Source of the DNA: an uncultured archaeon
GTDB taxonomy: Archaea > Asgardarchaeota > Lokiarchaeia > Sigyniarchaeales > SOKP01
Reading direction: 5' to 3'
NCBI GenBank assembly: GCA_964486045.1
Contig: CAZALK010000004.1
Coordinates: 235,772-299,771, forward strand
Length of the DNA: 64,000 bases
Shown: piece after piece, positions 3,675 to 64,000 of the stretch
How the letters are laid out: the number at the start of each line of letters is the position of its first letter
How positions within the stretch are numbered: position 1 is the stretch's first letter
The notes under the pieces: generated by a model
The model's database searches: none
What the model saw: only the letters and a program-made list of their open reading frames with translations
What the model was told of the DNA's origin: nothing
Translations under genes and position numbers: made by a program

Positions 3675-4526
3675 TTAAAGATTGTCCCCTAATATTTTTT
3701 GCATTTCTTCTAATCTCCTTTTGGGACCTAATTCACTCTCACGTGTTTGCAACCCGGAATCAAGAACCTGGTTCATCCTTACTTTAGATTCCCCTGATCC
3801 TGCTGCTATACCAAAAAGATGACCCTCCTCAAGTAAACCTTCTTTACGGGGCATTTCCTCAGCAACAACAACAGATCTTTTAACAAGAGCTATAGTTTCA
3901 GCCGAAATATAAGCTATGCTATTAGCTAAAATCTCAACAAACTGTCCAATCTTATCTGCTGGTAATGCTCTATTAATCCAACCATATCGCTCTGCCATCT
4001 TAGCAGAGTAAGGCATTAATCCTAACATGGCTTCTAATGATCGAGATCTTCCCATTAAGCGTGTTAGCCAATGTGTCCCCCCGCCTCCGGCAATAATTCC
4101 TACTGCTGCTTCAGTTTGGGAGAAAACAGCCTTTCCAATCGCTCCAAAACGCATATCAAGAGAAAGACAGAATTCATTTCCTCCTCCACCCACTATTCCT
4201 TCGATCTTTGCAATCGTTACTTTAGGTAATGTCCGAAATTCCATAAAATACTTTTTCCAGCCTTGTAATTCTTTGGCTGCAGGTGCAGCTTCTTCTGGGA
4301 AATCAGTTAAAGCAGTGACATCAAAATGTGAAATAAAGATTTCCGGATCAGCACTTTGAAAAACAATAACTTTTACATCATCATCTGCTTTGACTTGATT
4401 GAAAAAACGTTCCATATCCTCTAAAAAAGCCATGTTAATTAAATTTACAGGGGGATTATCAATTGTCACCCATGCTATACTATTTTTTACTTCAATCTTC
4501 CATACTTTATAATCTTTATACTCCAT
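3675..4526 (-). CDS. enoyl-CoA hydratase/isomerase family
   Basis: NPPVN, FISHFD, GGGNEF, QTEAAVGIIAGGGG. Confidence 0.9.
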   Translation of the reverse strand: MEYKDYKVWKIEVKNSIAWVTIDNPPVNLINMAFLEDMERFFNQVKADDDVKVIVFQSADPEIFISHFDVTALTDFPEEAAPAAKELQGWKKYFMEFRTLPKVTIAKIEGIVGGGGNEFCLSLDMRFGAIGKAVFSQTEAAVGIIAGGGGTHWLTRLMGRSRSLEAMLGLMPYSAKMAERYGWINRALPADKIGQFVEILANSIAYISAETIALVKRSVVVAEEMPRKEGLLEEGHLFGIAAGSGESKVRMNQVLDSGLQTRESELGPKRRLEEMQKILGDNL

Positions 4527-4651
4527 ATTTTTAACCTTAATTTTACTAATTTTATTAATATTTTTGACAAAGTATCAAATAAGAAGTTTTTTCTTATGAC
4601 CCTTAAAAAGATAAAAAAATCTTAGTGTGGTAGAAAATAATCAATATCTGT

Positions 4652-38754: not shown

Positions 38755-40341
38755 TTGTCGATTAATCGAACTGCACTCTTCACGGAGCTTTTTGATCAAT
38801 TTTTACAATCAAACTCCGATGTTGAGGGGGTGATCGTGAGTGATCAGCTAGGTTTCGTCATCGCTGGTCAAAAAAGAAGCGATGTGGACATGGAAATTGT
38901 TTCAGTTTTGACGTCTATCATAAATCCAATTGTAGAAAGAATACGTGATGAGTTTGCTTTCAAAAAATTTGGTACAGCTAGCTTTGATACAGAATTCTAT
39001 AGACTCTTATTTATCTCTTTAGATGAAAGTAGAACCTTGAGCATCGTTTTAAATAATTTAGCTTCGGTAGATAAAGCTTCTCCTTATGCATACCTTCTTG
39101 CAGAAAAATCGGTACAAATTTTAAATGCTGAAGAAGGTGATAATATACAGCTAAATATTCCTAATTTTGAATATGAAACAGATGAAACCTCTTACTCCGA
39201 AAGAGTAAAAAATCAAATATATCAAATGCGATTAGATCAAGGAGGAACTTATAGATTCAAGTTTGTTGTAATAGGGGATCATGAAGTCGGAAAAACGAGT
39301 CTAGTTAGGCGATTTGTAGAAAATAAATTTTTACATGACTATCGTGCTACTATAGGATTAAATATCTTAAGTCATTCATATGAATTCTATGGAAATAATA
39401 TTATATATAGTTTATGGGATGTTGGAGCTCAACAGTATTTTAAGAGATTTCGACAAACATACTATCTAGGTGCACAAGCAGCGTTTATAGTTTTTGATCT
39501 TACGAACCGACAAACTTTTGATGATGTAATACAATGGTACCAAGAATTAGAAAGTTTTATTGGTGGTCGAGAAATCCCAATTATTCTTATCGGAAATAAA
39601 ATGGATTTAAAAGACCAGAAAGTTATTAAATATGAAGAAGGAGTGAAATTAACAAATGATTTATCTCAAAAGGCTAATCTTAAGATCTCATATATTGAAA
39701 CGAGTGCTTTATCAGGTGAAAACGTTGAAGACGCCTTTACATTAATTGCATATCATTACATATCTAAAAGTAAAGAAGAAGAGGAAGAAAGAGTTAAAAG
39801 CGATTTGTTAGATGAACTCAACTCGATCTTGAAGGAGAAAAAAGTAATTGGAGAAGACTTTGAATCTTTATTAACCCTAACCATCATTTCTGAAAATGAA
39901 TTTTGGAGCCCGGGGTTACAAATTCTGTCAGAAATAAATGGGTTAGATGAGTGTAAGAAGCTGAAAGATCAAAGAGATGAGAAATTGTATAAATTCTCTA
40001 ACGGAGTGACCATTAAAAATTATCTTTACCACAATTTTGAAGTTTCTGACGCCGATGGGATTTTTTGCATATTTGACGCTCGGTATAAGGATCATGTTGA
40101 TCCTGCATGGAGAGATGTTGTCGTGAAAATCATAAACGAAATGGAAGAAAATAAGGTAGTTTTAATTGGTATTCGAGTTTCAGATAAAAGTGATTGGTCT
40201 CTAATAATGGAAGAATTTGATGTAAATGAGTTATTAGAACAAAAGATGATATCATTGCTGTTTTTCAAGTTAGGTATTGAATATCGATTGGAAATTTACG
40301 ATCAACTTAAAGTAATGTTAAATACAATAAAATATTTATAA
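38755..40341 (+). CDS. roadblock domain plus Rab-like GTPase plus degenerate C-terminal alpha/beta domain
   Basis: VEGVIVSDQLGFVIAG (roadblock); GDHEVGKT, ATIG, WDVGAQ, YYLGA, GNKMD, ETSA. Confidence 0.85.
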   Translation: MSINRTALFTELFDQFLQSNSDVEGVIVSDQLGFVIAGQKRSDVDMEIVSVLTSIINPIVERIRDEFAFKKFGTASFDTEFYRLLFISLDESRTLSIVLNNLASVDKASPYAYLLAEKSVQILNAEEGDNIQLNIPNFEYETDETSYSERVKNQIYQMRLDQGGTYRFKFVVIGDHEVGKTSLVRRFVENKFLHDYRATIGLNILSHSYEFYGNNIIYSLWDVGAQQYFKRFRQTYYLGAQAAFIVFDLTNRQTFDDVIQWYQELESFIGGREIPIILIGNKMDLKDQKVIKYEEGVKLTNDLSQKANLKISYIETSALSGENVEDAFTLIAYHYISKSKEEEEERVKSDLLDELNSILKEKKVIGEDFESLLTLTIISENEFWSPGLQILSEINGLDECKKLKDQRDEKLYKFSNGVTIKNYLYHNFEVSDADGIFCIFDARYKDHVDPAWRDVVVKIINEMEENKVVLIGIRVSDKSDWSLIMEEFDVNELLEQKMISLLFFKLGIEYRLEIYDQLKVMLNTIKYL

Positions 40342-40492
40342 GGAAATTCTCTCATTTTATTGTATTTTTATGATAGTTGTAATATGTTATGTTCTAACTT
40401 AAGTAATCACATTTCATAATCTCCTAAGAATAACAAAAAATAATAACAAGTAAAACTATAATATAGATATAAATAAATGGGTTAGACGATCC

Positions 40493-42052
40493 TTGGTAAT
40501 AAGTAAAAATAAGATCTTTTTCGAATTGTTTAACAATTTCTTAGAAATAAATGAGGAAGTAGAAGCCGTTATTGTTTCAGATAGCGAAGGTCTTATTATC
40601 GCAGGGGAGAAGAGGAAAGATGTAGATATTGAACTTATTTCAGTTTTAACCTCAATAATTAACCCTGTTTTAGAACGTATGCGAAATGAATTTTCTTTCA
40701 AGAAATTTGGGAATACAAGTTTTGATACAGAAGATCATCGTCTTTTGTTTATCTCTGTTGATGAGGAGCACATCCTAAGCCTAGTTTTAGACAATATGGC
40801 TTCTCTTGAGAAACTCTCACCATATGGTCTATTTCTCGCTGAAAAAACAGCACAAATTTTGACCGCTGAGGAAGATGACCATATCCAATTGACTGTACCG
40901 AATTTTGAATTCGAAGCTGAAAATGTTCAAAGGTTGAAAAATCAACTATATCAGATGGATCTGACAACCCATGGAGAATATCGCTTTAAATTTGTTATTT
41001 TGGGGGATCACGAAGTTGGTAAGACTTCGATCATTCGAAGATTTGTCGAAAACAAGTATACGGAAGATTATCGGGCAACTATAGGACTAAATGTTTTGAC
41101 ACACACCTTTGAATTTTTTGGGAATGAAATTGGGGTGACCTTATTTGACTTAGGTGCCCAAAAATTTTTCCGTCGTTTTCGAAAAGTGTATTACTCAGGC
41201 GCTCAAGCAGCTTTTATCGTTTTTGATTTATCAAACCGTGAATCTTTTAGTAATGCGTTGAATTGGCATCAAGAATTAAAGGAATTTACATCCGATCAAG
41301 AAATTCCTATAGTATTAGTTGGTAATAAATCAGACTTAAACGAAGAACGACAAGTTTTTTATCAAGAAGGGGTGAAACAAGCAAATGAATTGTCTGAGAA
41401 AGAAATTATTAAGTTATCTTATATTGAGACAAGTGCCTTGACAGGAGAGAATATTGAGGATGCATTCAATTTGATATCATATCATTACGTAATGAGAAGT
41501 AAAGAAATCGAAGATGAGAGACGTGGTGACCTATTATTTGAAAAAATAACCTCTATTATTAAGAAAAAGATTGTATTAACAATATCTTTTATTTCAGAAA
41601 ATACAATGTGGAGTCCAGGTCTTCAAATTATCGCCAATATAAAGAAATTAGGAGAACAAACACTAGTTAGAGATTATGACGATGAGCAAGTCTACCAATA
41701 TCTCAATGGGTTAATCACCAAACAGCATATTTTTTCTGCGGCTGATGATATCTCAAGTTCTGATGGCGTATTTTGTATATTTGATTTAAGAGATAAAGAA
41801 CATGTCGATCCTAAATGGAAAGAAATTATTATTAAAATTATTGAAAATTCTAAAGATAAGGGAGTAGTATTAATTGGGATTAGAGCTGTGGAAAGTAGTA
41901 GTTGGTCTCAGATAATAGAAGAATTAAATGTCGATGAACGATTAGAAAATAAAGTAATTGATCTCTTCTTCTTTAGAATTGGAACAGATTTCCGCTTAGA
42001 TATTTTCGATCAGCTAAAGTCGATGCTTTCAGTTATTGATGATAAGTATTAA
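40493..42052 (+). CDS. roadblock domain plus Rab-like GTPase, tandem paralog
   Basis: VEAVIVSDSEGLIIAG; GDHEVGKT, ATIG, FDLGAQ, YYSGA, GNKSD, ETSA. Confidence 0.85.
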   Translation: MVISKNKIFFELFNNFLEINEEVEAVIVSDSEGLIIAGEKRKDVDIELISVLTSIINPVLERMRNEFSFKKFGNTSFDTEDHRLLFISVDEEHILSLVLDNMASLEKLSPYGLFLAEKTAQILTAEEDDHIQLTVPNFEFEAENVQRLKNQLYQMDLTTHGEYRFKFVILGDHEVGKTSIIRRFVENKYTEDYRATIGLNVLTHTFEFFGNEIGVTLFDLGAQKFFRRFRKVYYSGAQAAFIVFDLSNRESFSNALNWHQELKEFTSDQEIPIVLVGNKSDLNEERQVFYQEGVKQANELSEKEIIKLSYIETSALTGENIEDAFNLISYHYVMRSKEIEDERRGDLLFEKITSIIKKKIVLTISFISENTMWSPGLQIIANIKKLGEQTLVRDYDDEQVYQYLNGLITKQHIFSAADDISSSDGVFCIFDLRDKEHVDPKWKEIIIKIIENSKDKGVVLIGIRAVESSSWSQIIEELNVDERLENKVIDLFFFRIGTDFRLDIFDQLKSMLSVIDDKY

Positions 42053-44960: not shown

Positions 44961-45173
44961 ATGGCAAAAAAAGTTTTTGCTTGGAGTCCAGTTAGAAAGT
45001 TAATGAAAGACAATGGCGCTGAAATGGTTGCCCGAGATGCTGTAGATGCCTTAATTGATTATTTAGAAAAATTAGCTAGAGGCATGACAAATAAAGCTCT
45101 TGAGATGACCCGACACGCCGGTCGTAAGAAATTAACTCTCAATGACATGGACCTAGCAATGGATTTAATATAG
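44961..45173 (+). CDS. archaeal histone (HMf-type histone fold)
   Basis: PVRKLMKDNGAEMVARDA...HAGRKKLTLND; GGAGG Shine-Dalgarno-like motif upstream. Confidence 0.92.
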   Translation: MAKKVFAWSPVRKLMKDNGAEMVARDAVDALIDYLEKLARGMTNKALEMTRHAGRKKLTLNDMDLAMDLI

Positions 45174-45536: not shown

Positions 45537-46127
45537 CTAATCTAAAAAATAATTATTATTTAAGGAAATAACAAACTGATCTACATCTTCTTGTATATCA
45601 CCGCAAATTTTAAGCAAATGGGAATTCGTTAAGGTGATTTTCTCTACTCTAAAACCGTACTCTCTAGCTAAGATTTCACACGCATTCAAATCATCAATTT
45701 TAGTGGTGTTATACTCTGCACATTTAGAACCAAGAGAAATCTTGCGAAAACAATGGGCTCCTGCTTCTTTATCTTTCGCATCAAAAGTTCTATATCGACA
45801 TAAACCATATTTTTTTTCTGGTCTCGCTAAAAAAATAACATCTTTCATCTCAGTCGTACAATAGACAATCTCCCCAATTTTCACTTTTTCCAAGAACTTT
45901 TTGGACCGTACTTGTATTTTATCTGCAAGATAATCATGATATAAAAGCTTATCTTTAAGCCCAGGACAAATCTTTAGCGCTTCAATTTTAAAAGATTTAC
46001 TAAGTTCTACAAAGGAATTAAAAAACCTACAATAAATAATATTCTTGCGTAATATCTTAAACTGGCAACCCTTAAAAGCACTCAAGCAAATGTAAGAATC
46101 TTGGATATTCGAATAATTGCTTTCCAT
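45537..46127 (-). CDS. Cys-rich hypothetical protein; candidate immunity protein of the giant toxin-like gene
   Basis: 196 aa, co-oriented, starts 40 bp after the giant ORF stop; no recognisable motif. Confidence 0.6.
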   Translation of the reverse strand: MESNYSNIQDSYICLSAFKGCQFKILRKNIIYCRFFNSFVELSKSFKIEALKICPGLKDKLLYHDYLADKIQVRSKKFLEKVKIGEIVYCTTEMKDVIFLARPEKKYGLCRYRTFDAKDKEAGAHCFRKISLGSKCAEYNTTKIDDLNACEILAREYGFRVEKITLTNSHLLKICGDIQEDVDQFVISLNNNYFLD

Positions 46128-46167
46128 ATATAATAAATAAGAAAATAAAAATATATAATTTTAACTA

Positions 46168-49100
46168 TCAGAATGAGCTTAAAATGTTCCGATAATTTTT
46201 AATTTTCTTCTGAGGAGCATCTGTACCAGTTAATCTTTTATACTCATCTGATATATATGCTTGCATATCACTATATTTGACGGTATAAGGAACAACAATC
46301 AGATCAACCCCATTCTTTTTGCAGAGTTCTACCTTTAATTTATCATTTTGTTGAATTCTCTGTAGTCTTTTTAATGCAACATCCCTACTTAATTTATAAA
46401 CCTTTATATGGAACTCTAAATCATAATGTTGAGGACCGTTATACTCAATTGCTAACCTCAACTTTTCGTTGTAACCATCTAATTCAAGTAATCCACCAAC
46501 CCCCTGTAACCATTTCACTGATCCCTTAGGATATTTTCTAAATCTTGCATTAAAAATATACTTCATATAAGCACGCGAAAGCATTTCTGGCTCCGTGTCT
46601 TTAGAATGTCTATTTATGAAATTCCTTATGATTCGGGATGCTTTTTGTTGGATACTAACTAAATCATCATGACTGATTGCATAATGTGTGATTTTTTCAA
46701 ATTCAGTGGTCGTTAAATCTTCTATATTCTGAATCATTCTTGTTAAAGTTTCAAGAGCAGGATTAGTATAAACTCGCTGTCCAAAAAAGCTTTCAAATAG
46801 ATTATATCTATGACCATAAAGTAATAAAGATAGAGCAATTCGTGATTTTAATGAACCTTGCGGAAATAAGGCTATCAATCTGCCAACTAACTTTCCACGA
46901 GGTGTATGGGAAATCTCTAAGGGAACTAAATCATTAGCAGAAACTGTAGCAAAAAAGATGTCAAATGATTTAATAAATGAATCGTATACATTATGGGCTT
47001 GTAAATCTTCAGAATGCTTAGATTTCAATTCACCAAATAACTTAGCATATATTGATGGTGTAATCCCACGGGAAGCGTCACTTCTCATTAAAGATAAAGT
47101 CGCTGAAAAAGCTACTTTAAATTTCTTCTCAAAAATTCTAACTGATTGCTTATCTATGATCTTGGCTTTATAAAAAATCAAAGCTAAACTTCGTGATAGT
47201 GTTAAAAGAGGTAAATAGCTAGGATTCTCTATAGTCTGGTAAACCGGTGTTTCATAATATTCTGTAAAGACATCCAAAATATCTAAAATATCGTCAAAGT
47301 GATTTTTTTCCTCTATTACTGATTTTTGGTACAATTTCAACTTAGCAATTGATAATAAATCAAAGAGAAATTTCTCTGTTACTTTTTCAAGATTTCCCTT
47401 TCCAATTTGGTATCTTGTAGCAGTAAAATAATTCTCATTGACTTCGAAAAAATTTGCAAGTTGAGTGTCAAAAAAATCAATACCAAACACTTCAGATAAT
47501 TTATCCTTTAACCGAGAGGTGAACCTGTTATAAGCATTTAGACTTACTTTCCGGCCGTTATAACGTATCAATTTATTCATAAATGCCTCTGTAGCGGTAA
47601 ACATTCGACTCAGCGCTTTAATCAATTTAGGATTAGGTAGGACTGCCGCACCGCTAACTTGTCCAACCGGGAGGATTTGTTCGTTTGGATCGTTAAATAG
47701 ATAAAACTTTCCATCAATAACAACTCCATCCTCGAGATTGTTAGGGACAGGACTTAATTTTCCATCGTCTGTTATGTCCTGCATCACATCAGAAATACCT
47801 ACCATATCAAGATCAGAAATAATTTTTGCAGATTCACTTGATGATGATTGAACCACTATATTATGAATAATGGTTTTATGTATCTTGAAGCTCTTGGAGA
47901 ACGTCTTAATCGCTGAAAATCCGGCAACAAGTGTGCCACTGAAGAACATCGGTCCGCCAATGCCGACAAGTGCAGCCCCGAGTACAAGGGAGGCTCCGGT
48001 CTTTATTATAGAGCTCCATTGGGGTTTTATTTTGATGTGAGATTCTCTTTCGCTAATTGTCTCTAGAGCAGCTTTTTCTGCTGAAATCTCATTAGTTATG
48101 TGGCGTTCGGACACTAAATTTTGAGTGTTCGTTTGGGTGTCTCCGAATAGGAATTGGGACATCGGACCTGTGATAGACTCACGTCCTCCTTCTACGAGGC
48201 TATTAATAAACACCTGCATGAAAATATCCAGACCTAAGCCTGCAACAAGCTCAGATACGACAATTTCGAGAAGGGGGTCTGTAAAAATTTCTTGCAGTGA
48301 TTCAAAAATCGGGGATGTAATGAATTTTACTAATGTCGTACTAGCTGCCATGCCGGCGATCATAGTTCCAATGGTAGGTCTAATAGCCCACTTAGAAACA
48401 TCATCTAAAAGGCTTTGTGTAAACGTTGGAATCATGGCGGCGCTTGCTCCTTTAGTTAAATATTTTGCAAGTTTACCTATACCGAAAGTAGCACCCACAG
48501 TAAGAATTGTACTTATTGTAGTTACGAAAACGGTATAACACATCTGTGACAAAGTCTCTTGTGTAATTTGAGCGTTTCTGTATTGATAGGTATATTCGAG
48601 TATGTTCTGTTCGATAGCTTGCATGGTGGCAACGCGATTTTCATCTGAATTGGTAGGATCAAGCGCTTGATATTTAGAAACTTTTATCTCGAATACATAA
48701 AACACTTCATAGTCGGGATCACCGATGTATGCACTTGCCTTAGCTTGAGCATTCGATATTAAGTAAGAATAGACACTGTCGCCAAGAGTTAAGACTCCTG
48801 TTGTTTTGCTAAATGAGAATGTGTGGTTCAGATATGAGCCAACAAATCTATTATTATGAATGTCATTACCGTTCGAGTCTATACCTAAGTATTCATATTG
48901 ATATACATCTATTTGTTGAATATCGGCATATATCATATGAATTTTATCTTCAGGGATAAGTTCAATATCTTGTGAACTTTCAGTATCAAATATTTTATAA
49001 ATAGTAAATTGGTCATTTTCAACTGTGGAGTAGCTACTAGAATCTACAAATATTGGATATTCGTGATAAAATTCGGGTATAGGGAATCCGGTATTTGCAC

Positions 49101-52100
49101 CTGCAAATTGGAAGGTTGGAACAAAAACTCCGTCGTTACGTTGCAAGTATGGGTAAAGTTTGTTGTATTCCCCGTTAGTCTCCTTGTTAATTGCGTTTTC
49201 TAAACCCATGATAGCATTTGGACTCTGAGTAGAAGTGAATGAATGTGGCGATAGCCGAGGATCATCGATATCCGAATACCCTGAATAATCACGCGTCTGT
49301 ATGGCGTAATCAAGCGAAATAGGAAAATTGGAACCCCAATTTGTCTTCTTCCACCCTTGTGGGGCGAGAATAAGGGCTCCCTTGAAGTCATGGTTGTCGT
49401 ATTCTAAAAATACATCACTGTACACACCGGCAGAACTCCCTATGATCATATCAGGGATTGATCCCCCCCATACCCTATCAGCCTCATTTTTGCTCGAGAG
49501 GGTAATAGCACCGTCATAATCTTCATTATAAAGCGTTTGAGAAGCTACTAGTTGGGTGTTATCATGAGCTTGTTTCATAGCATTGAGAGCGCTGAGAATT
49601 GCATACATGAGTATGAAACCCGCGGTGCCAGTATGTGTTACGATCCCAAACAGAGTTGAAATAAGTGCAGCCCCAACTTGCCATAAAATGTCTTGAACCA
49701 TTCTACCTTGTATAGATTGAACAAACTGACTTGAGGTTATGGCTGAGACCTCTCTCATTAGTGTACTAGTCTCTGTATTATACATTATTTTCCAAACATC
49801 ATATAATGAATCAGAGAATACATCGTCTAAGAAATATCCATCGTAAGAATTATAATCCCGCAAAAATACCCTATTTTGAGGCCCAAGGTTTGAAAAATCC
49901 CATAATCCGCTAGATGTGGAACTTATAAGATGTTTTTCACTAAAGATTTTCTTGTTTGGCTCAAAATGAGAATTGTAATCGTAATCAAAACCTATTGCAA
50001 GTACTTTCTCGTCTCTGTTAACGACGAAAATAGTGTCGAAAACTCCGTCTTGAGCGCTGGAATAAAACCAATATTCACCGCCAACGTCTACTTTTCTAGG
50101 ATTTGTTTTCGGATTGCTGTCAATAATTACTTTTCCATCATCAGGAATAATTTGGATTACTTCTAAGGTAGAAGATACCTTATCTGACCTTGAGAGAGAA
50201 TCTGGAATTGATACTGTCTTTTGAACGGTCAAGATGTTTTCAAAAACTAGTGAGTCGGTAATGGTGGTTTTACTATCAAACAGAGCAGGAACATTGTCGG
50301 TAGTATGAGTGAAGCCCAAAAGCTCTTCTAATGCAGGGGCTTGAAGTGTGAGGTCATTTGATGGATCTTCATCCCCGTTATCGTTAGTAATTACCTTTAA
50401 ATAAGTATTAGGATCGTATTTTGCAGATAGCTCATTAGCGAAAGTATCTTCATAAATCCGAACTGAGCTTACTTCGCCATATTCATAATCTCTAAAGGTA
50501 AATAAGTGGGATTTAGCAGAAGTCTCAACGAAAGAGTCACGCAACTCTGTAATGGTCCCCTCGGGGAACATTTTGGTGCTAAAAACATCATCTAAGAAAA
50601 ATCCCATGATTTCTGTAGTATATGTAGTCGTCTCTGAAAATGTACTCGATGCTTCAAATGTGATGTCTTTATCAATAAGCCCATCTAAATCGAGGTCTTT
50701 TTGAATAATTACTGTTGTCTTTGTAGTGGTGCTAGTCGTGGTGGTATTTGTTATTAATGTTCTTCGACCAAAAAGGGTTCCGACCATATAAGGAATACCA
50801 TTTTTATTTTCTACATAAAATTTATCTCCAAAAATTGTATTATCACCTGCAATCTCATAATACTTAGTACTTCTTACATCGCTGGTCTTTTGCGTCTCTA
50901 CGTTAGTTGTCTTTGTCTTGATTAAGGTGGTATGGAACACAATCTCCCCTGCGGAGTTAACTTCTCCATATTTATAAACATCGTAAATGCCGTCGATGTC
51001 AACATCCTGACTTTGTATGACTAACTCGTGTTCTCCATCAAGGCTAAAATCATAAAGCTCTAGGGCAGTTCGTTTATCATCCTTTCTTGAGAAATTTGCG
51101 AAGTCAGTAAGCTGAATATCGTTATTAAACTCATATTCTGAAGTTAAGGTATTATAAATAACAAAATTAACATTTCTCACATATTCAAGGTATTCAAAAA
51201 GCGAATCATCAGAGCCAACCGCATAATCTTCCATAAGTAGGAAGTAATCAATATCATTGTATTCGTAATCAACATAGATGCTGTCATTCTTGGTCCAAGC
51301 AGGTGGTCCTGATTTATCTTTCCCATTTTGAAGTAGCCTGAATTGAGTGTAATCAGAATAAGCACCTTCAGTAAAGTTAAGATATACAATAACCTTCTCA
51401 AAATTTCTCAAACTAATGCTATTTGGCGCTTGAATTTGAATCGATTCTCCGTCAGGGAAATTAGAATCTGCTGGATCAAAATCGACCTCAGATTCGTTGA
51501 AAAAGAGTCCTTTTATCATCATGATTTCTAGGTTTTGGGCATCGGAATAATCTTGTGATAAGTCAAATGTATCTGTATCTCCTTCCGAATTATAAGGGAA
51601 AATATTCTCAATTGCGATGTGTCGTGCTTCAAATTCGTTTAGGGATTGATCATATGCGACAGATTGATATTCTTCCAAAATCTCATCGTACCATTCAAAA
51701 GTGATATCCATTGTGCTGATATTTACGTTTGGGGTCTCAATGGTGTGCCATTCGTTCCATGCATTTTGGTCTGCCCATGAAAGGTAGAGGTATCTGAAAG
51801 TGTCAATATGAGGATTATAATATTCAAATAAGTCTTGAAGATCCGAATCTTGGTCACGGTAGGCATAATAATATTCTTCGTTGTATTGAGGATTCCAAGT
51901 AATATCATAAACCCCTGAAGTCGTTTCTTGACCACTTAAGTGTTCATCAAAATAATACCAATTACCATCACTATCAAATGCATCGAAATAATAAGTCTCG
52001 TTTATTGCAGGATCGTCTTGATATAACGGGAGAAACTCGCTTGCGTCTAGGATTATAGATTCACTATAAATATTCGCATAATCCCCCACATAAAACTTTT

Positions 52101-55100
52101 CTAAATGGTTATTTTCAAAAATATCGAAAATATCTGAATCGTATAGGGTTGTGTTTTCTTCAAATTCGAATAGAAAAACGGAATCGATTATTAATTCATA
52201 GCGTGGGTCGTTGGATGTAATAAGAATGTCTGTTATATAAGAGTGTTCAACGTTATTAGTATCCAATGTCTTGAAATCAGAGTAAATATCGTCTAGAGAC
52301 ACATTGAAAGTTGTCTGTCTGTATTCATTGTAGAGTTCACTTTCAAAGGGAGTTAAGTCTAAGGAGGTTTCCCATGCCACTAATTTATCCCTATTCTCAT
52401 AGAGATCGCCAGTAGTATAAGGTAATCCGTCATTATTTATTCCTAATAGTGAAATCTCGGCTATTGGAACATCATTGAGTTCTGTTTTATAATTTGTAAT
52501 GAAAGGACTCTTCTGAAGCACCATATCTTCTACTGTAATACCGATTGATTCCTCTAGAGAGGCGTTATATTTCAAAAACAGTAAATCTCCATTCTTCATT
52601 TTCATTGTATCACTTCCTAATATATATGAGCCTGGGAGGGAAGCATTGTTATATTCCACTATGTAGGATTGGCCATTATAGTTCTCTTCTTGTTCTCTCA
52701 CCCCTGGGCTAACTGCATAAAGGAATTCATACTGGTCATTTAGGACATAGACTTGTTCATTGAGAGAAAATATTTCTTTATCTAGGTCAACGGTTAAATA
52801 TCCATCCTCAACCTTATTAGCCTCCCATTCTATTGATTGATAAGATGGGAGTCCCTCTTCATAAAAGAAACCTAAATAATCATCGGATTGATAGAATGTA
52901 GGACTAAAGGTGATATGGGCATTATTGGCAACTGTGAAATACTGAAAATCAGGAGAATTTGGCAACCTAATATAAACTGCTCCTGAATTATCGGCGAACA
53001 TAACCGAGGTTACGTTAGTATAACCAATGTAAGTATTGTTATTATAGTAGAATGATACATTTAGATACTCCAACACATCTGGATTCAAAAGACCCATCTT
53101 TATGATAAGTGTGTCATAATCTTTCCAACCATTGCTTGCGTCGTCTAATTCCTCAGTAAGGTAATAAGTTAGGTTATTAGTGCTATTTATTATTCCATAT
53201 ACTTGTTTTACTATTCCTGAAGTAATTGGGTCGTAGGCACTGGCTCCATAAATTAAGTTATTTGACTCCAAGTTCGCAATTAGATTATTCGTTGGATCTT
53301 GGGCGACCGTCCAGCTCTCCAGGGTGATTACTTTATTACTTAGATCGGTTTGAATATGATGGAACGGTTGGTACTTATTGTGTGTCTCAGGCATGATCAT
53401 TACATAGATACTATCTCCTTCAACAAGCGTATCTTCTTCGGTAAAGGCGTCGAAATTAGTAATGGTAACTGAGTTATCCCATAAATCATAGTTTACATAA
53501 TCATCCTCAATTATTTCTTTTTGACTTGAGGAATTTATGAAATATGCAACTATTACAAAACCGTCACTGTCTCCGAGAGGATCGTTTTGGCCTAATTGAA
53601 TTTTAGCTGATTGACCGCTAGCTTCTTGTTGGCTTAACTCTGTGGAGAATGTTAGAAATGATTTTTCTTGGAGTCGATAATTAAGTGCTAGTTGATATTG
53701 ATAATTCGCTGATAGATTATAGTATAAAGGCGCTACGATGCTGGAACCGCTGAATGGGTAATAATTATTATAGAACTTCATCTCATAAGGCTGGATTTCG
53801 ATAAAGAAGTGTTTGGTGTCCAGTAAGCCGCCCTTTGTTTTGAATGAGTACTCGATAGTAAAATTCTCCCCAATGGTTAAATATTGTTTAATGCTATCCG
53901 TGAACGTTATATTGTTTCCTTGAATTGAGGATATATTTCCTAACGGTTGGATAATATTTCCAAGTGAATCTCTAATAGTGAACGTATAAGAACTACCATA
54001 AAGAATATCATCGTATTTAGTGTAATAACTTGAACTTTCTTTCATGTAATTATAGGTGACCAAAACTTCGGTGTCATTGAGAATATTAAGATATTCAAAA
54101 TATTCCTTCACCATTGTAAAAGTATAGATGGGTTCAGTGGGATAATTATCATCGTGTGACCAAGAGATCATGTATTTTTCATTTACATAACGCTCACCTG
54201 CTTCGGTTTGGATGGTAATACCAAATGGGTTTATTCTATCCCATTGTTCGTCTTGTATAATATCGTCAAATTCTCCGCCGTTAGTTAAATTCAGAGAGAC
54301 TTCATAAAATCTATCATCAAATCCGGTAAAAATAAATTCGGTAAAGTTATATTCATTTGGATAGAATTGAAATTCTTCAGTGGTAGAGGACATAAAAGCA
54401 CTCATAGGGGCATACTCGCTCAAATGATAAAATGAAGCACTAAAGGTGGTGGCTGAAGTTAAATCGGGATGATACTCAAATTGATCCCAGAAAAGATATG
54501 AGCTATCAGGGAATTTCCAATGAAGGGTAGGACTGTAGGTATTTGCAGGTTCATCTATGCTATAATCAAATTCAATAAATTCGTAGTTAATATGTAAATC
54601 AAGCTGGATGGTATTACTGGTGAGTAATAGAATGATATCTTCTTTAGTCTCATAGAAGTGAATTTGGTTTTCTCCCTGTTCAGTAATGACCAAATCGTAG
54701 TGCGTTCCTTCAGTAAGGAGAACGGTAGACGGTGTGTAAGTATCAGCATTGTCGGGGTTATATACAATATAATCATCTTGCTTTAAAGCAAATCCTTGCC
54801 ATGATTCAACCCAAACCCAAGGAGTACTTATCCTATCAATAGTATTTATATCAACATGGTCAATTCTCGTAGTCGCGTTTGGAATTTCTATAGCGAATTG
54901 AACTTCGCTTGGCAACCCTGAACTAATAATGTTATTCGAGTCAGTAAGATCAACTCGATGATGTAGATATAAATCCCCGTCTACATACATATATTGACTG
55001 GTGAGGGGTTGAGTTGATAATTCGAAATTTTGGGTATTGTAAATGTTGTCATTAAATTGACTAACATCTACGGTATAATCGCTGTACTGCCAATTCATAT

Positions 55101-58100
55101 TAAACTCTTTAGCATCAACAAACACTTCTCCGTAAGGTTCTGTACCTTTTCCAGCATACAGATTAACTTCCCCTTCGATATATTCAGGAAGTTCAAGGTC
55201 GTAAGCATTAATGTGAAGACCTAATGATTCCGTAAGCCTGTAATCTTGAGATTGTTCTGACTTAAAGGAATATGAATTGTTGTTAATAACTTCAAACGTA
55301 AGTTCATCATAATTATTTTCGTCCTTGTATAACTTAACCAATTCCCCATAGTCATTAAAACCTTCTACTGCTATTGTTACCCAAGCGTCATCAACCACAT
55401 CGTACGCTTCATTTAGTCTATCAGTGAAAATTTGAGCGTAATGTGCCGTATTTATCGTCTGGGCTACATTTATCTCATTCCTTTTATTCTTCATCGGCTT
55501 ATCGATGACCTGAAGTATCCTATCATCAGCGGTTAGTTCAAATTTATCAAAAATAACATACTGAGTAATATTCGTATTATTTCCATAGGTAAGAAAATCA
55601 ATTTCGATGTCATAGGTGGTATAACCTTTAACCGCATACATAGGCTGGAGGTTAATCTCGAAATCAAACCTATTTTCTCCGGTAGAAGGATCAATTGATA
55701 CATAATCGAAATAAGATTCTCCATCTTCAGTGGTAAAAGTAAATGTTGCAAGTATTGGTTTAAGTTTTGACACATTTCCATAAAGTACAGCATCGTCTAA
55801 GAAAAATGAACCATTGAGAACGCTGTCATAGAGCAAAGCGAGATAATTGAATGAGATAGTAGTTTTATTATCTTTTAATATAGGTATTAGTATCTTTGGA
55901 ATACCTGGATCGAGGGGATCTTGGGGATCGTCTGGAATGGTGAGTAGATTAATATCGGTGCTAGAACTGTGATTGTATAATTTATGTGAATCACGGAATC
56001 TTGAAAGTTTTCTGACAGCATCTGTCATATTCATATCAGTTCGTTGATATCCTCTATCAAGCTTATAGGAAGCAATACCATATTTAATGAATACGTCTTT
56101 TGGGCCAGTTAAATCAACATCGATTCTAATTTGTTTATTATTATTTATAATGCTAAGTTCATATAAATCCTCAATTTTTTGTCCTGTGTTATCGGTAATA
56201 TTGTAGATTTTTACATCTTCTAGGGTTATATCACTATCTATAAAACCAACGTCTAGATTAGCCATCCCGGAAATGTCTAATGTATAAGATTCATTAAATA
56301 TTGAATTATATACACCTAAATAATTTACATGATCTAGTTGGAGTGGAGTTGTATCAGTATTAAACAGTATTTCAGAGAATTCGAATCCATTGGTCTCTGA
56401 GAAAGTCCATGTCTTAACCTTATTTTCCTCAAGTTTAACCGTGTATGAAATTACTAAATCGGAGTAGTTATCTAAAGTGGTTCCACTGTTAATTACTATA
56501 CTATAATCTCCAATAACCGTATAATTATTACCGGCGCCCTCTATCAGAATTACTTCATCATATTCATATATTCCTCTCACTTCTACAATATCAATAATAT
56601 CGGTGTATCCATTAAGGTTTAATAAAATATCATCAGAATCAATTCCATAAGTATCAATATCATCCGTGTATTCAAAATATCGTTCTACACCATAGTTTTC
56701 GGCAAGATTTCCTATCCAGAACTCTCCTATATCTGAATCAGAATAAGAATCAAGTATCACTGAATCAGTTCTAATACTGGAATTTGTAAGAGTAAGGTTT
56801 AGAATAAATAATTTTTGCTCTCTATTATCGGCAATCATTCCTGTCTGATTGTAGGTGGCGTCCGCAGATATGTTCAAAATAACTTCTTTACCCATCAACA
56901 TATCACCATCCTGCCCTAGAGGATATTCAAAGTAATAAAGACCGTCATAGACGAGTGAACTAATGAAAAGATCCTCATCTCCAAGTTCAATCCATGAAAA
57001 TTCGCTCCAATCAGTAGTATCTCCGATATCCCTTGCCTTCGCTGAAACTTTGAAGTTGATATAATCAGATATACCCTCATCGCTATGTAGGGTTGCAAGA
57101 TACCCAGTGAGTCGTGGATAGATGTCTTCATAAAACGCATAATCACTTCCGAAATAAGTACCGCCCCATCCTGAATCAAACCAGTTGAGAAGGTCTAAAG
57201 TCATGGTAGGTTCTCCAAATTTCATCCAATTCTCAGGTCTCACTTCGAGACTTATAAACCTGTATACATCTTTAGTATATTCCCTTGGAATAGTGAAAAT
57301 GTTGACTTGGTATACTCCCGGAATCAGTTGGTCTAAATAATGGTCACTGATATTGAAGGTTGCTACTCCGTCACTATCAACATACGCAGAAAATTGAACA
57401 AGTCCCTCTTCAAATACACTTTCACCTGAATAATCAGTGATCATTGCTATGATTGGCATTCCATCTATTAAATAGATATTCTGGCTATCTTCAGGAATCA
57501 AGTTATTAGTCTCGAAGCTGGTCTCTAATTTGGCAATAGTCATCAATTCAGCATCAGGTACAACATCAGCCTCTGCAATCTCTACACTAAATGAAAAAGT
57601 ATCGTTTAGTTCCGAGCCCATTTGGTATACTAAGAGATTTGGAACTCCAAGCATAAGATCTTCGGGATGGATTGTAATTAAACCCTCTCCGTACCCTCCT
57701 GAATAGAATGTAGTGTCTTTATAATCATATCCGTCTAATTCGGATACTCTACCAAGGTCAAATACATTATTGTCTTGCGACATATAAAGTTGTGAAGCAT
57801 CATCAAAAGCCATATGACCTATATCATACACAGGGGCATGGAATACGCGAATATATAGCCGATAATCATCAAGCGAGTCAAAGGTTACACTTCCACTACT
57901 GAAAAGTGATTCATCGAAAATGCGGTGATGGTCTTCTATTAGATCTTCATCCAAGCTGACATTGAAAGAAACAATTCCTGTATTATCAGTTATTTGATAA
58001 TCCCAGAATAGGCTTGAGTACTCAGCGACTTGTCCTGTCTCTGAGTCTAGGTACTCCCATGACTCTGGTCTGGTGAACATTCGCGATACCGAATAAGTGG

Positions 58101-61100
58101 GGTCCAATACACCAGGACCACGCACTACTTCTTGCCCTTGTTCAGTAAACCAAGCTGTTCCTAATGCTTCGGAATCGATATAGTTTCCATCTTCATCCTC
58201 CCAATCTAGAATTTTATAATTAAGCCCTGCCTTTGGTTTGAATCCGATTTCCATCCAGACTAACTGATCTGCAAGAAAATCACCTCTCTCATCGGTTAAC
58301 TCAAATTGGAACTCATAATTATCGGTAATCGTTCTATGGAAATCAAAATAGGTATATGGTTTATCAACTTGTAAGGTCTCATAAGGACTTGTGGTTGTGG
58401 TATATACCCTATTTTGAATAGTAGCCCATTGATCGAATGTACGCGAAAATTCGGTTGGAATATAGGAAATCTTACTCTGTTTTCCATTGACAGTTAAAGT
58501 AAAGACTTCATTAACAGAAAAGCTGGTATTATATACACTATTAAATCCAGAATAATCAACCCCGATATACTGATCATTATAGGCTGCCAAGGTGGGAGGA
58601 AGGTAGATAAGCCTCATGATAGTTTCAACGTTTAATGGAAACTGTAATCCATTTTCACCCATATAAAAACTATAGTCAAAATTACCATCCTCTCTTAACG
58701 GAACTCTTGCAAGTGGTTTCCATAATCCATCAGTATCATCAAGAAATTCAAGGATCATATTTTTTACAGGATTGATTTCCTCGGTGAGATAGCCATAATA
58801 GGCTAGAAAGTATGCATCATCAATTTCGTAATTAGGAGTAACTGAGCTATAAAAAGTGTAGAATGTTATGTAATTGTTATTGACTCCTGTAATATCATAG
58901 TCGATACCGTAAATCATGGGAGTAACGGAAATTGCATTATCTACCATAACTTTAATCGTTGAGTTTACTAAGAAGGTACTCATTGCATAGTGGGTTAGTT
59001 TCAGCTTTGGGATATAACCATATTCAACCTTTAGATTAATTGGACCAGACTCTGTATAGGTGATATTAAGAGCGTCAACACCACTCTCGTTTACGATGCT
59101 ATAGGTGTAATAGCTGTCGTTCAAGAGCTCAAACTCATCAACGCTTATTTCCTTCCACACGTTTTTAAGGGATATGATTCCTGAGCCGATGGAAGAATTA
59201 ACCACTTGGATCGTTTGGTCTTGAGCAACTGAAGTGTATAAGGAACTATTCTCAAATATAGGATTTACATCAAGAATCTCTTTATCGAATTGTCTGGAAT
59301 TTTCCCATTCAAAGGTCTCATAGCTAAACATCCTAAAGTCAACGGGAATAATTACATCCTCGATATCTTCAAAAGTGACAGGGGTGATTATTCTTCCTTG
59401 GATGACTTTATAGGTAAGTAATAGATTAGTATCATATGGAATTAATTGGCTGTTGTCGGAAGTCCAATTGATAATTAACATGAATTTATTAGGATGATCG
59501 GTACGATAGTAGGCATAATAGCTGATCCAGCTGTCTTCGATTACATTGGTTGCATAATTAAAACTACTGCCGTTTACCACTTCGAATAAGGGAGTGATTT
59601 CATTGTAATTTTCTCTATCGATAAATTCTAGCTTAAAGTTATTTTTATCAATAAATTCTGTTTCCCCGATGAGACCATTAAGATCAATTTCATATTCAGT
59701 AAGTGTAAATTCACCAATTGGATCGGTTGCGATGTAAGGAATAATTTCACGCTCTCGGTAATAGGTAGAATTATCTAAAATATAGCCCATTAAATTCAAT
59801 TCTTCTTCAAAATCCACATCAAACTTTGTATTAAGAGTAAAAGTATAATCAGGATTGAAAACAACTTCTCTTTCGTTTTTTAAGGCTATTTGTGATAAAA
59901 TCTGGGGGATCAGTTCAATCTCGACAGAATTAGTCGAATTTACAATCTCTTCAGCAACTGTTGGATAAAGTGTAAAGATAAGATCATAACTGCCCAACTC
60001 CTCTGTGACACTAAATCTAGAATGGAATTTATCAACCGAATTATCCCATTCTAAAAATGAGACACCTAAGATAGTACCAGTCAAATTATCGGTCATTACA
60101 AGGAAGGGAGTTGCCATTTCATATAATGGAAATGGTGTAATTGCGCTATTTATCCTGAAGTAAATATCGATAATATCCGTAAAGAATAGATCATTTGGCT
60201 GGTTCAAAGCTAAGGTTTGAAGGTTGCTAAACGCTTCCATTTCTGTAATTTGGGAATCAAAAGTATCTAATTCGATACTCATGCTTTCATCTACAATAAA
60301 ATTGTATTGATAATCATTAAAGTAAACTGTTAAGGCTGAATCATTAGCTAAAATATCATAAAAGCTCATTTGTGAAATACCGAATATCTGATATGGGAAG
60401 TTAATAATGGTAAATCCGGTATTAGGATCATACATTGAAACACTTCCCGGCCATACTGGAGCGTCGGATACTACAAAACTAACGGAATGAATCTTGGTTA
60501 TATCAAACAAGGTCTCTAGATTTGACGCTGTAAGGCTGGCAAAATCGATATAAATTGGTATCTCGAGGAGTTCAGACAGTCCAGGAATAACACGTTTATA
60601 CTGTGATGCGTCTTTGAAGTATTTATCGAAATCGAGTGAATCCATACTATATACAAATCGGTTATCATCAAAATCAATAAAGAGGATTTGGAGCCTTTCG
60701 ATTGTACCGTGAGTTGAATAAATATTTGGAACTAAAATCTTTAGGAATAATCCGTCTTTCTGAGTGTCTTTAATGACTTTTGCATAATCCGAACCATAAT
60801 AATTGAAAAACACTAGGTCATCCTCGATATTATATTGGCTAAAGTTTACATTCCACGAGACCGAGCCGTTGATAGACACAGTAAAATCAATTTCGTCAAA
60901 GTTGTGTTTAATATCATACTTTCCGGTCTCACCATTATAGAGGTAGCTAAATACTTCTGAATAATTGATATAATCAAGAAGCCTAAATCCTTCACGCTCA
61001 GAAATATCCATAACTGAGGTCCGTTCTTCTTGTAAGAAGTAAGAAAGGACTAGCGGATCTTTTTGGGAAGCGTGTTTTGCAAATGCATAATAATTTGTTC

Positions 61101-61821
61101 CCGTTGCATCCCAGTTTAATTGAAAGTCAAGAGGATAATTAGATACCAACGTATTTTCAAAAATATTTTCGGAATATAAAATTAAATCGTCAAGACTATC
61201 AAACCTAACTTCATATCTTTGTGAGGTTTCGTTCCATAAGGTAATTTCCAAATAATAATTTCCAGATTTGACTTTAATCGAATGATTCTGTAATTCACTA
61301 TTGTCAGCACCGATTAGCGTGAAATTCACGATAGTTCCAATTCCTTGATAAATTTCATTGACATTAATTAGATTATTATCAAATTGGATAGTAACTTCAT
61401 TTGATACTAGAATTCGTGGTATTGTCGCATCATAGTTGTATGAATCACCAAGATAACTGGAGTTAGTAATAGTATTACCTGCAGCATCAGTTATTCTGAA
61501 TTCAATAGTATAATAATACTTAGTATGGTCTTCGAAATTGTTTACAGGTACTCCTAAATCAAATAATGTGGTCTCAATTCCACTTATTGGACTAAATCCA
61601 GAAGTGTATAGAGAAGTATTACTCATATCGAATACATTTATCTGATACTCAACGGAAATTTCGTCTATATAATAATAGTTAGTATGATTAATAATGCCTT
61701 GCAGATTATCAGTTGTTAAAATGTTAAACAGTGTCCATGGAGCAGCAAAATTGTTTAATGAATAATCGGTAGCTCCATCTCCTATTGATGTAACTGAAGT
61801 AGGATCTTCAAAATCAAGCAA
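46168..61821 (-). CDS. giant (>5,200 aa) surface/secreted-type protein with C-terminal PD-(D/E)xK nuclease; polymorphic-toxin-like; probably 5'-truncated
   Basis: 15.6-kb open frame. Ig-like motifs ([17 protein letters not shown]), many NxS/T sequons, DxDxDG motifs, a hydrophobic helix block, and C-terminal [22 protein letters not shown]...[21 protein letters not shown]. Confidence 0.85.
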   Translation of the reverse strand: [5217 protein letters not shown]

Positions 61822-61850
61822 AACTGTGTAAGTAAGGTTTAAATAATAAA

Positions 61851-62120
61851 AAGATATTACATACAGCAGATTCAGCTACGTTTTCAAATGAATTAAAATC
61901 TCTTAAAGATGAAATTGATCTGTGCTTTGTTGCCTGTTTTGAGAGCAATTTTAATGATTATCTAAAATTTTTAAAAAAAATTACTCTAAAATTGGTAATT
62001 CCATATCATTTTACTACAGAAAAAGAAGGTGGAGCTAAAAAATTAACAGGATTTCTTCTTGATAATGATATTAATTCAACTTTTCTTTCAATTGGAAAAG
62101 AATTTGAATTTTCCTTTTAG
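61851..62120 (+). pseudogene. 5'-truncated MBL-fold hydrolase (C-terminal half)
   Basis: Manual translation KILHTADSATFSNELKSLKDEIDLCFV...LKLVIPYHF...EFEFSF*; in-frame TAA at 61833 and no start codon. Confidence 0.7.
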
Positions 62121-62579
62121 GAGATATTAGGATTATAAAAAAACTATTTAATAATTTCTTACCGAAATTGAAGTTTAAGTTTAAATTCCCTTTTGGAGTT
62201 AAATTTATACTTTATGAGGAGATTGTGCAGATTCTTAAGAAGATTTTTATGTCGAGTGATCTACTAGAAGAAGATAGTAGATTTTAAAAAATTATATTTC
62301 TTCATTAGCCTTTTCTTCCTGTCTTGGCTTTTTACCTTTTTTATAACTTTTCATAAATTTTTTATAATTGATTGGTTATAAACCTAATTTTTGTAATTAT
62401 TTTTCAATTTCTAAATTTTGTTTAAACTTGAGTTATAAGACTGTATTTTAATATTTTTAACCGAATAATAGAGAAAGACAAATAAAAGCAACCAAGTTAA
62501 TCATAGTATTTAAATTATCAATTAGTTTCTATTAGCGTATAAAATAAACCATTTATTAAAAAATTATTGAAATATAACA

Positions 62580-62711
62580 ATGATACAATTATATCATCAG
62601 AAATGTAAGTGTATCATTACTATATCTTTTTAATATGATATAGATATAGCATTGGGTAATCAGTTAACTGTGATATAAATATATCAGTCAATTATGATAT
62701 TTTTATAGCAT
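62580..62711. repeat. array of four imperfect palindromes TGATA-N6-TA(T/G)CA
   Basis: Copies start at 62581 (TGATAcaattaTATCA), 62636 (TGATAtagataTAGCA), 62671 (TGATAtaaataTATCA) and 62695 (TGATAtttttaTAGCA). Confidence 0.75.
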
Positions 62712-62766
62712 TTATATACTATTTTCTTAATATAAATATTAAAGTTAAAAAAAAAGAATTGTTAGA

Positions 62767-62955
62767 ATGTCCGTTCCAGAGAAAATTATTGAAGTATTAA
62801 AGAAACAAAACCGATTAACCATGGAAATTGAAGAGTCGAGTTCTTGGGGAGCTCAGCCTCTAAAGTCTTGGGGAAATAGGTTTATTATTATTTTTAATTC
62901 AATTCTTATAAATCGAGGCTTCTACAAAAATCCTAAAAAGAATAAAAAATTTTAG
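62767..62955 (+). pseudogene. short ORF, possibly a truncated winged-helix protein start
   Basis: MSVPEKIIEVLKKQNRLT resembles wHTH helix 1; the rest looks non-coding or chimeric. Confidence 0.3.
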
Positions 62956-63283
62956 AAATTCTCCCATACTCTTGGGTAGCTCTATCTTTAAACCACTCAA
63001 TAAATTCAGGAAATTTATTTTCATCAATAATATCTTCAATATTATATATATGAAGATATCCTTACCTCGAAAAGTAAACACCTAATTTTTTTATTTCGCT
63101 ATCTCCTGGCATACTATCAATCCCATCAATTCTATATAGAGTGTAATAACCAATCAATTGATCATAATACTCTCGTTTCATTTGAAATATTTTAGTAGTT
63201 TTTATATCTATTAACATCTCATCTATAACTAAATCAGCATCTGCACCTCCAACCATAATAGAAGCATTACCGAAAGTAGGATC
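62933..63283 (-). pseudogene. 5'-truncated PD-(D/E)xK nuclease-family gene with internal stop
   Basis: DPTFGNASIMVGGADADLVIDEMLIDIKTTK...DQLIGY...LGVYFSR*GYLHIYNIEDIIDENKFPEFIEWFK; the frame continues past TAA at 63062-63064. Confidence 0.75.
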
Positions 63284-63600
63284 TTATCTATTTTTAATAA
63301 ATTAGCACAATTATCATCCAGATACAAAATTTTAAATAGGAAATTTACTGAATATGAGCTTAATGAGCCCATAAGAATCATGAAAAGAGATAAAAAACAG
63401 GAAAAAGAAAGAGAAGATCAGACTGTAAAAAAAAATAATAAAATGTATTTTTCTTTTGGGCTAATAATTGACACCTAACTTTTTTTTACTTTGTAAATTA
63501 TTTTTATGAGAATATTAAATTTCTATAGGATAGTCAAAAACATAAAGATTCTTGATTTTTGAGCACCCATCCAATTTAAAAAGGAGGAGAAAAAGGTAGA

Positions 63601-63768
63601 ATGCAAATGAGTAATGTTGAAGAAACTAGAAAAAACTTCATAGAACATGCTTTAAATGAGATACGCAGTACACCACATTACGGTAATTTTTACCTTCATA
63701 CCTATTATGTCATCGCGAAATTGGGGCTACAGCATAAGGCTAAAGTTGAAGGACTTTTCGAAAGCTGA
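63601..63768 (+). pseudogene. N-terminal fragment of an unknown gene
   Basis: AGGAGGAG upstream; MQMSNVEETRKNFIEHALNEIRSTPHYGNFYLHTYYVIAKLGLQHKAKVEGLFES*. Confidence 0.45.
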
Positions 63769-63934
63769 AGGTTTAAGAGAAAAAATTATTTTAATGTGTG
63801 GTGGGCCAAGAATAAGCAATACACTCGCTAAAGAAACAGGATTTGATGCGGGATTTGGATCAGGTACTTTTGCAGGGGTAGTTTCTACATTTGCTATTAA
63901 AGAGTTAGTTAAAAGAAGAAAACTAAAAGAATAG
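63761..63934 (+). pseudogene. C-terminal fragment of a B12-binding aminomutase subunit (lysine 5,6-aminomutase KamE / ornithine aminomutase-like)
   Basis: KAEGLREKIILMCGGPRISNTLAKETGFDAGFGSGT matches the cobalamin-binding Rossmann C-terminus; the DxH motif is absent. Confidence 0.7.
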
Positions 63935-64000
63935 TATAATGATTACAATCTAGTATTGAGAAACAACATATATCTCCCTTTAAATAATTCGGTGTTAACA

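Follow-up and report, generated by a model that had tools for sequence, protein, structure and literature searches.

The window analysed here is a 64,000-nucleotide stretch of one contig from an archaeal genome (G000; contigs carry C-numbers and loci of the gene family described below L-numbers). Its reverse strand holds the C-terminal 5,217 codons of a giant putative toxin gene (46168..61821), opening on a TTG codon, and a gene for a 196-aa predicted immunity protein (45537..46127) that starts 40 bp past the stop of the giant ORF in the same orientation. Both genes, reported in an earlier note made from the letters alone, are real at these coordinates. On the forward strand, an archaeal histone gene (44961..45173) is convergent with the pair and marks the locus's conserved chromosomal site. 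A syntenic locus of Lokiarchaeum GC14_75 carries a tip (Lokiarch_38620) 69% identical to that of the window ORF and a partner 68% identical to the 196-aa protein, and the two loci share the order tip, partner, histone, acetyltransferase, isopropylmalate dehydrogenase and two Roc GTPases. This synteny and the named homologous loci, nearly all of them from Promethearchaeota, agree with the earlier, tentative assignment to an Asgard host and place it in the Lokiarchaea. In the window, the Roc/Ras-type GTPase-domain genes stand in tandem at 38755-42052 (528 and 519 aa); they lie beside the locus in Lokiarchaeum assemblies too. A sigma-70 promoter scan was uninformative, the host being an archaeon.

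The ORF is not the complete protein it had been taken for. When it is aligned with a paralogue on C7 that spans at least 9,498 aa, its first residue falls at residue 4144 of the latter. This paralogue and another on C8 are 80% and 72% identical to the window ORF over residues 1-4663/4685 and reach at least 4,144 aa farther upstream, and intact relatives measure 9,000-20,600 aa. The N-terminus of the window ORF has neither a signal peptide nor a membrane helix. DNA homology ends at 61840, where the sequence switches via ~3 bp of microhomology to a 1,121-bp segment (61840..62960) with 100% identity to C6:534-1654, where it makes up the 3' half of an intact gene. The contig ends at 64000, ~2.2 kb from this truncating junction. 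The longer paralogues and the 5' junction rule out the TTG as a natural start. Judged from these comparisons, the window gene is the decapitated rear half of a Lokiarchaeia surface protein of 10,000-20,000 aa.

The junction itself would be either an assembly mis-join or a recent rearrangement. The region from 61840 to 64000 is a mosaic of the C6 duplicate and fragments of a multi-copy gene, with its last 67 bp 94% like the start of C6. Natural deletions do occur within the family, as on C17, where an N-terminus of the family type is joined to part of the middle stalk, and shortened copies occupy the window's own site in other samples. Whether it is a mis-join is close to an even question, and if it is, the window copy may be whole in the cell; as assembled, this copy lacks an anchor and would be limited to the role of an orphan module. 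The C17 sequence (C17:875-2287) is an internally deleted relic of an N-terminus also found on C36. There, C36:1-4713 holds an N-terminus of the family type that has membrane helices and is open at its 3' end; it may be the front that the C7, C8 or window gene lacks.

The first 3,580 residues of the window ORF (51082..61821) form an acidic, presumably extracellular stalk with a net charge of -11 per 100 aa. It carries 65 N-X-S/T sequons against 41 expected, a number reached in none of 500 shuffles. The acidic, sequon-rich character noted earlier for a stalk of ~3,600 aa thus holds, whereas its Ig-like motifs are dropped as a demonstrated feature, since the stalk matched no profile in Pfam or NCBIfam and nothing in ESM Atlas. 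Self-comparison of the ORF found no internal repeats. DxDxDG motifs are present, though not as a cluster of many: there are two strict loops only, at residues 3606 and 3709.

The stalk is followed by a conserved module that we term the delivery module (aa 3581-4663; 47833..51081). It holds 2 sequons against 9.7 expected, and just 2 occur anywhere past residue 3600. The Gly/Ala-rich hydrophobic helices described earlier were recovered as four moderately hydrophobic segments, at ~4044-4062, 4430-4451, 4516-4544 and 4603-4638, with Kyte-Doolittle peaks of 1.5-1.84; aa 4430-4638 (47908..48534) are the putative membrane-inserting part. An AF2 model, built from 52 sequences over 1,101 aa, reached a mean pLDDT of 75.6 and a pTM of 0.75 and is confident for residues 3580-4560. 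It predicts very long beta-strands and hairpins, a hydrophobic hairpin and a helical bundle with a 67-residue helix. Searched as one piece of 1,101 aa, it gave a best Foldseek E of 0.009 and no clear match to known translocation or pore folds, and its best VIA match (Z 9.1, rmsd 3.1, 112 aligned) was a generic beta-sheet. Rows for perforin/MACPF pores, Rhs and fusogens in these fold searches were weak, below significance and unused. At this length, the lack of a clear fold match in the modelled structure would be no proof of a new fold. The module is nonetheless a candidate new membrane-translocation module. Its lack of resemblance to known translocation domains in these searches counts against the toxin reading and leaves hydrophobicity as the sole pointer to membrane insertion.

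Past the junction motif GQVSGAA (aa 4720-4726; 47644..47664), a candidate release site, lies a swappable payload (aa 4727-5217; 46171..47643) comprising a helical region and a nuclease, with zero sequons. In line with the earlier description, the last 490 residues are basic and end in a PD-(D/E)xK nuclease domain (aa 5061-5217; 46171..46641) of DUF559/Vsr-like, homing-endonuclease type. The motif in these terminal 157 residues comprises E5079, D5115, E5126 and Q5131/H5132. Among the PHROGs, the domain finds phage endonucleases of the homing and intron types (phrog_559, E 8e-13), and its ESM Atlas neighbours include DUF559-containing clusters. Searches of PDB sequences with alignments of the nuclease and the helical region returned nothing significant. 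A single-sequence AF2 model of the last 410 aa reached a pLDDT of 39, and the fold search from it was discarded as meaningless. Relatives of the nuclease stand free in G000 (C1:493691, C1:700561), and a distant trunk, P0008, bears the payload too (43% over the tip). A toxin-type enzyme fold is thus found at the C-terminus of the window copy, as are GIY-YIG and LAGLIDADG in sister copies.

A profile of the delivery module detected the family in 52 of 117 genomes (~45%) of the window's Lokiarchaeal family and in only 3 of the 214 genomes searched from the phylum's other families; a global library yielded hits in 356 clusters (50% identity). Three members scattered beyond the main family (G220:C57, 11,809 aa; G190:C252; G316:C179) may reflect transfer or mis-binning. 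Open frames are commonly 11,000-14,800 aa and once 20,619 aa. This longest frame (G024:C13:86445-148301) has internal repeated domains and, by eye, a peptidase-like tip. Intact genes encode, in order, a cytoplasmic N-terminus, membrane helices, an acidic stalk of 7,000-16,000 aa, the module of ~1,100 aa and a payload of 400-1,850 aa. Upstream of 10 of the 19 full-length loci lies a conserved gene for a secreted, C-terminally anchored protein of ~580 aa, often with a small winged-helix-like gene alongside; a chaperone, a receptor or an anchor partner are possible roles. Examples are L140:7211-9013 and G000:C3:224270-226045 and 231373-233133, with a weak Loki-CTERM-like tail.

A genome can hold up to 10 copies of the gene; G000 carries ~10 copies or relics of the family. 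Five close copies have a common trunk and then, after aa ~4660, unrelated tips: PD-(D/E)xK in the window, HNH-like on C7, C23 and C13 and GIY-YIG-like on C8, those of C8, C13 and C23 being assigned by motif. Across the family, 59 complete tips fell into 29 payload clusters. GIY-YIG, LAGLIDADG and ubiquitin domains scored above the Pfam cut-off, HNH was backed by PHROG, one tip has an S24 peptidase domain and others look RNase-like or peptidase-like by eye. Orphan tips and orphan or clustered partner genes occur at G000:C13:8743-10749, C3:222600-224065, L134, L136 and the array on G014:C35.

The 196-aa protein had no family match in Pfam, NCBIfam or ESM Atlas. Family-wide, a gene lies within 320 bp at 54 of 59 loci and is co-oriented in 42 of these. 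Pairs of loci with the same payload had a common downstream family in 33 of 77 cases, compared with 9.7 in shuffles (maximum 28 in 5,000). As the kin are not independent this yields no true p, and we place more trust in the contrast between trunks. Where these are 87-94% identical (L020/L021/L022), tips and partners differ; where they are only 25-28% identical (window/L022/L097), tip class and partner family are shared. By these sequence comparisons, the partner gene goes with the payload rather than with the trunk. The expectation that homologues would vary in C-terminus and downstream gene on a common trunk was thus confirmed, with 29 payload clusters and partners co-varying with tips. A partner is also kept beside a 72-aa toxin remnant at L136 and beside a fragmented toxin at L134, and at least six copies of another partner family cluster on G014:C35. 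As a point against the toxin reading, the nearest neighbour is convergent at 12 of the 54 loci, and several neighbours come from an LRR family that is generic and expanded; some loci therefore lack a clear cognate partner.

Structure prediction supports binding of the window nuclease by the 196-aa protein. The predicted complex of aa 5061-5217 with this protein scored 0.65, compared with 0.00 for the best of three controls. Of 80 solved complexes 58 attained that mark, as did 2 of 110 mismatched pairs; these figures apply here only roughly. Contacts agreed between runs to at least 64%, and the partner's pLDDT was at least 69. The predicted interface covers Q5130-D5160, directly past the predicted catalytic E5126. 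Co-variation, synteny and this model together mark the 196-aa protein as the predicted cognate of the nuclease. Two further neighbour families were observed. A small zinc-finger family (RNNLR...CxxC...WYCxxC), a candidate orphan immunity family on sequence grounds, follows one HNH-like payload class; the cluster at L028 (G014:C35:17201-20521) has at least six copies, and ~10 are scattered over G000 (e.g. C3:222600-223019, C13:8105-8704). The other, an expanded Lokiarchaeal LRR family marked by EFWGHCSN, supplies the closest neighbour in 15 of 54 cases, in one orientation or the other (e.g. L041, L049, L091, L118, L120), and may be a generic immunity family. It was rejected as proven immunity, as it is often convergent and has ~25 copies in G000.

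The payloads are almost free of N-X-S/T sequons. The 59 payloads contained 7 against 352.8 expected (2%), and with one payload per cluster there were 0 against 177.5. Control motifs were at expectation (S/T-x-N 1.00, N-x-x-S/T 1.00), and the non-glycosylatable N-P-S/T was enriched 2.2-fold. The ratio was 0.90 in partner genes and 0.94 in cytoplasmic ORFs (lowest draw 0.71), and free-standing homologous nucleases were near expectation. G000 encodes AglB/STT3, and the cultured relative Promethearchaeum glycosylates N-X-S/T (PMC11284389). We infer that the purged payload meets the oligosaccharyltransferase and hence lies outside the cell, and that selection acts strongly against its glycosylation. 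A glycan-free payload would be expected for delivery into another cell if a membrane has to be threaded on the way. Normal sequon content was seen in one payload alone, that of L126 (G151:C11; 4 against 3.9), a short ORF standing by itself whose product may have ceased to be exported.

The export route is visible in full-length members, in which a basic cytoplasmic stretch precedes several strong membrane helices (KD 2.0-2.9); these helices are absent from the truncated window copy. The sequon pattern speaks for export as well. The surface-displayed scaffold proposed earlier agrees with these N-terminal helices and with the sequon pattern, although the real scaffold is 2-4 times longer than proposed and N-terminally anchored.

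A route for payload release is suggested by the junction. In 6 of 59 loci, three of them in G000, the payload opens with a homologue of a ubiquitin-like protein (Ubl). Their apparent source, a free host Ubl gene ending in QAGG, lies at G000:C10:126155-126442. Five payload Ubls matched the host Ubl by phmmer (E 2e-18 to 2e-6) and the sixth through iteration, with an empty reversed control; at L093 a Pfam ubiquitin domain leads directly into GIY-YIG. JAB peptidases cut after Ubl tails (PMC3482391), and G000 encodes four JAB domains (C5:175445, C10:184228, C2:173095, C12:54786). One JAB gene is ~3.4 kb from the C10 giant gene, and a second Ubl-like ORF (C5:172904-173236) lies near another. From their sequences, the Ubl-bearing members are probably cut by a JAB/JAMM deubiquitinase. 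In the window copy a profile search ruled out a Ubl domain and left the tail-like GQVSGAA alone. This motif is common to the junctions of the window copy, L020, L091 and L130, and sisters have a whole Ubl domain there; that it too would be cut by such an enzyme is conceivable, though we doubt it. A second junction type has an extra hydrophobic hairpin and then a TIGM[VT]-like motif right before the payload, which suggests another processing route; it was seen at L021, L024, L094, L096, L097, L098 and L110.

CdiA/CdiI systems combine a long surface filament, a tip-delivered payload, a conserved junction, a cognate immunity gene and orphan modules, and their hallmarks are CdiB/two-partner secretion (TPS), filamentous haemagglutinin repeats and the VENN/PT domain. 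The Loki family resembles them in its long surface protein, the junction before a variable tip, its partner gene and its orphan modules, and differs in its monoderm archaeal host. Pfam and NCBIfam searches gave zero matches for haemagglutinin repeats, TPS and VENN/PT, and no conserved upstream transporter gene was found. RHS/YD repeats and the PxxxxDPxG core were likewise absent from these searches and from self-comparison, and RHS, haemagglutinin, Hint, LXG/WXG, PAAR and MuF profiles of both databases had no match in the family. With haemagglutinin, YD and Hint profiles all unmatched, the scaffold is unlike CdiA and Rhs, as first stated. Bacterial polymorphic toxins in general consist of a trunk and a variable C-terminal toxin beside an adjacent immunity gene; such systems are scarce in archaea, where most immunity superfamilies are absent (Zhang et al. 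2012, PMC3482391). The Loki family shares with them REase, HNH and URI/GIY-YIG payload folds, standalone cassettes and clustered immunity genes (PMC3482391). It is set apart by an N-terminal multi-helix anchor, a length of 9-20 thousand aa, a presumably glycosylated stalk with a sequon-free tip and, in some members, a copy of a host Ubl.

Among archaeal proteins, VARTIG of Thermococcales (PMC8416519) is likewise a large surface protein with a hypervariable C-terminus and variable downstream genes; unlike the Loki family, it varies an Ig domain and not an enzyme (PMC8416519). The available text of Wu et al. 2022 (PMC8813620) describes the aloposons Otus and Ephialtes, tRNA-integrated Heimdallarchaeum elements with tandem genes of 3,000-6,000 aa, and numerous unrelated giant genes across Asgard. 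That text proposes no toxin role, and the Loki family, nearly restricted to a single Lokiarchaeal family, differs from aloposons in distribution. The upstream context of 19 Loki loci also departs from the aloposon arrangement (four upstream genes, MinD/ParA ATPase). From the distribution, homology to the aloposon giants looks unlikely. The window payload has the same nuclease domain as EDxHD/Vsr-like (DUF559) phage homing endonucleases; unlike these, the Loki nuclease is fused as cargo to the end of an exported protein, has been cleared of sequons and has its own predicted binding partner. Our literature search turned up no account of this system or of any Asgard contact weapon; Makarova et al. 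2019, who reportedly predicted archaeal polymorphic toxin systems, stood outside the comparison.

Taken together, the shared trunk, swapped tips, co-varying partners and orphan cassettes support the reading first proposed. As far as sequence can tell, every feature of the polymorphic toxin class that can be read from it is present, and the system is neither CdiA nor Rhs. We consider it very probable that this is a polymorphic toxin-immunity system whose scaffold is specific to Lokiarchaea and which acts between cells. The protein would be exported via Sec and anchored by its N-terminus, with AglB glycosylating the stalk and the tip staying glycan-free. On contact, the Gly/Ala helices of the delivery module would enter the neighbour's membrane and thread the payload in, which would be cut free and cleave DNA. 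Kin with the partner protein would bind and neutralise the payload. The most likely targets are related Lokiarchaeia. The full scenario, which has about an equal chance of being right or wrong, is that Lokiarchaeia fight kin with anchored, glycosylated stalks of 10,000-20,000 residues. These would use a translocation module not described before to inject a nuclease free of glycans, and some payloads, being fused to the host's Ubl, would be armed by the deubiquitinase of the victim.

Large, homing-endonuclease-like payloads are unusual among non-specific killing nucleases, which counts against a toxin. They fit instead a gene drive, in which the stalk would inject a site-specific endonuclease into a contacted cell. 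There it would cut a target and so promote the copying of a mobile element or of the locus itself, while the partner guards the donor. Payload nucleases do belong to classic homing-endonuclease families, often with helical/HTH arrays; the two free-standing nuclease relatives on C1, the ParB-like or integrase-like genes seen by eye near some full-length genes and the giant genes on Asgard mobile elements, known from the available text on aloposons (PMC8813620), point the same way. Such a drive is nevertheless improbable, as many payloads are non-homing (the S24 peptidase and the RNase-like and peptidase-like tips), the loci occupy many unrelated chromosomal sites, for example within a ribosomal protein cluster, and no conserved DNA-transfer genes lie alongside.

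A membrane-spanning receptor would account equally well for a cognate inhibitor and for Ubl cleavage by a deubiquitinase of the same cell. Its late hydrophobic helices would be ordinary membrane anchors, and its nuclease tail would sit in the producer's cytoplasm, restrained by the partner and released for suicide or defence. We think this most improbable, since a cytoplasmic tail needs no purge of N-X-S/T: payloads are at 2% of expectation, compared with 70-95% for cytoplasmic proteins and free nucleases. The late helices are also weaker than the N-terminal anchors (KD 1.5-2.1 vs 2.0-2.9). The non-depleted L126 could be such a domesticated case. An artefact joining trunk, nuclease and small gene by mis-assembly, to which the junction at a mosaic contig end and stalk stretches 94-100% identical to the C7 paralogue lend some colour, is hardly credible. 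Independently assembled genomes (among them GCA_000986845.1 and GCA_004196255.1) show delivery module, nuclease, partner and flanks in an unchanged order, which refutes an artefact for the 3' half. The assembly chimera that the earlier note had named as a refutation does not apply to the link of trunk, nuclease and small gene, which recurs independently; the 5' end of the ORF is a junction and may be a mis-join.

An inter-cell polymorphic toxin system thus remains our reading of the family, which is costly, at 30-60 kb per gene and with proteins of 14,000-20,600 aa included. It is a source of toxin-partner pairs, of new nuclease and immunity domains and possibly of Asgard ubiquitin use in conflict. 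The near-complete loss of sequons from payloads also gives an easy way to recognise, from sequence, exported cargo that must enter another cell in archaea that glycosylate. A weapon with a Ubl-fused payload, if true, would exploit two eukaryote-like Asgard systems, and how Asgard archaea, the prokaryotes most closely related to eukaryotes, behave toward neighbour cells bears on eukaryogenesis.
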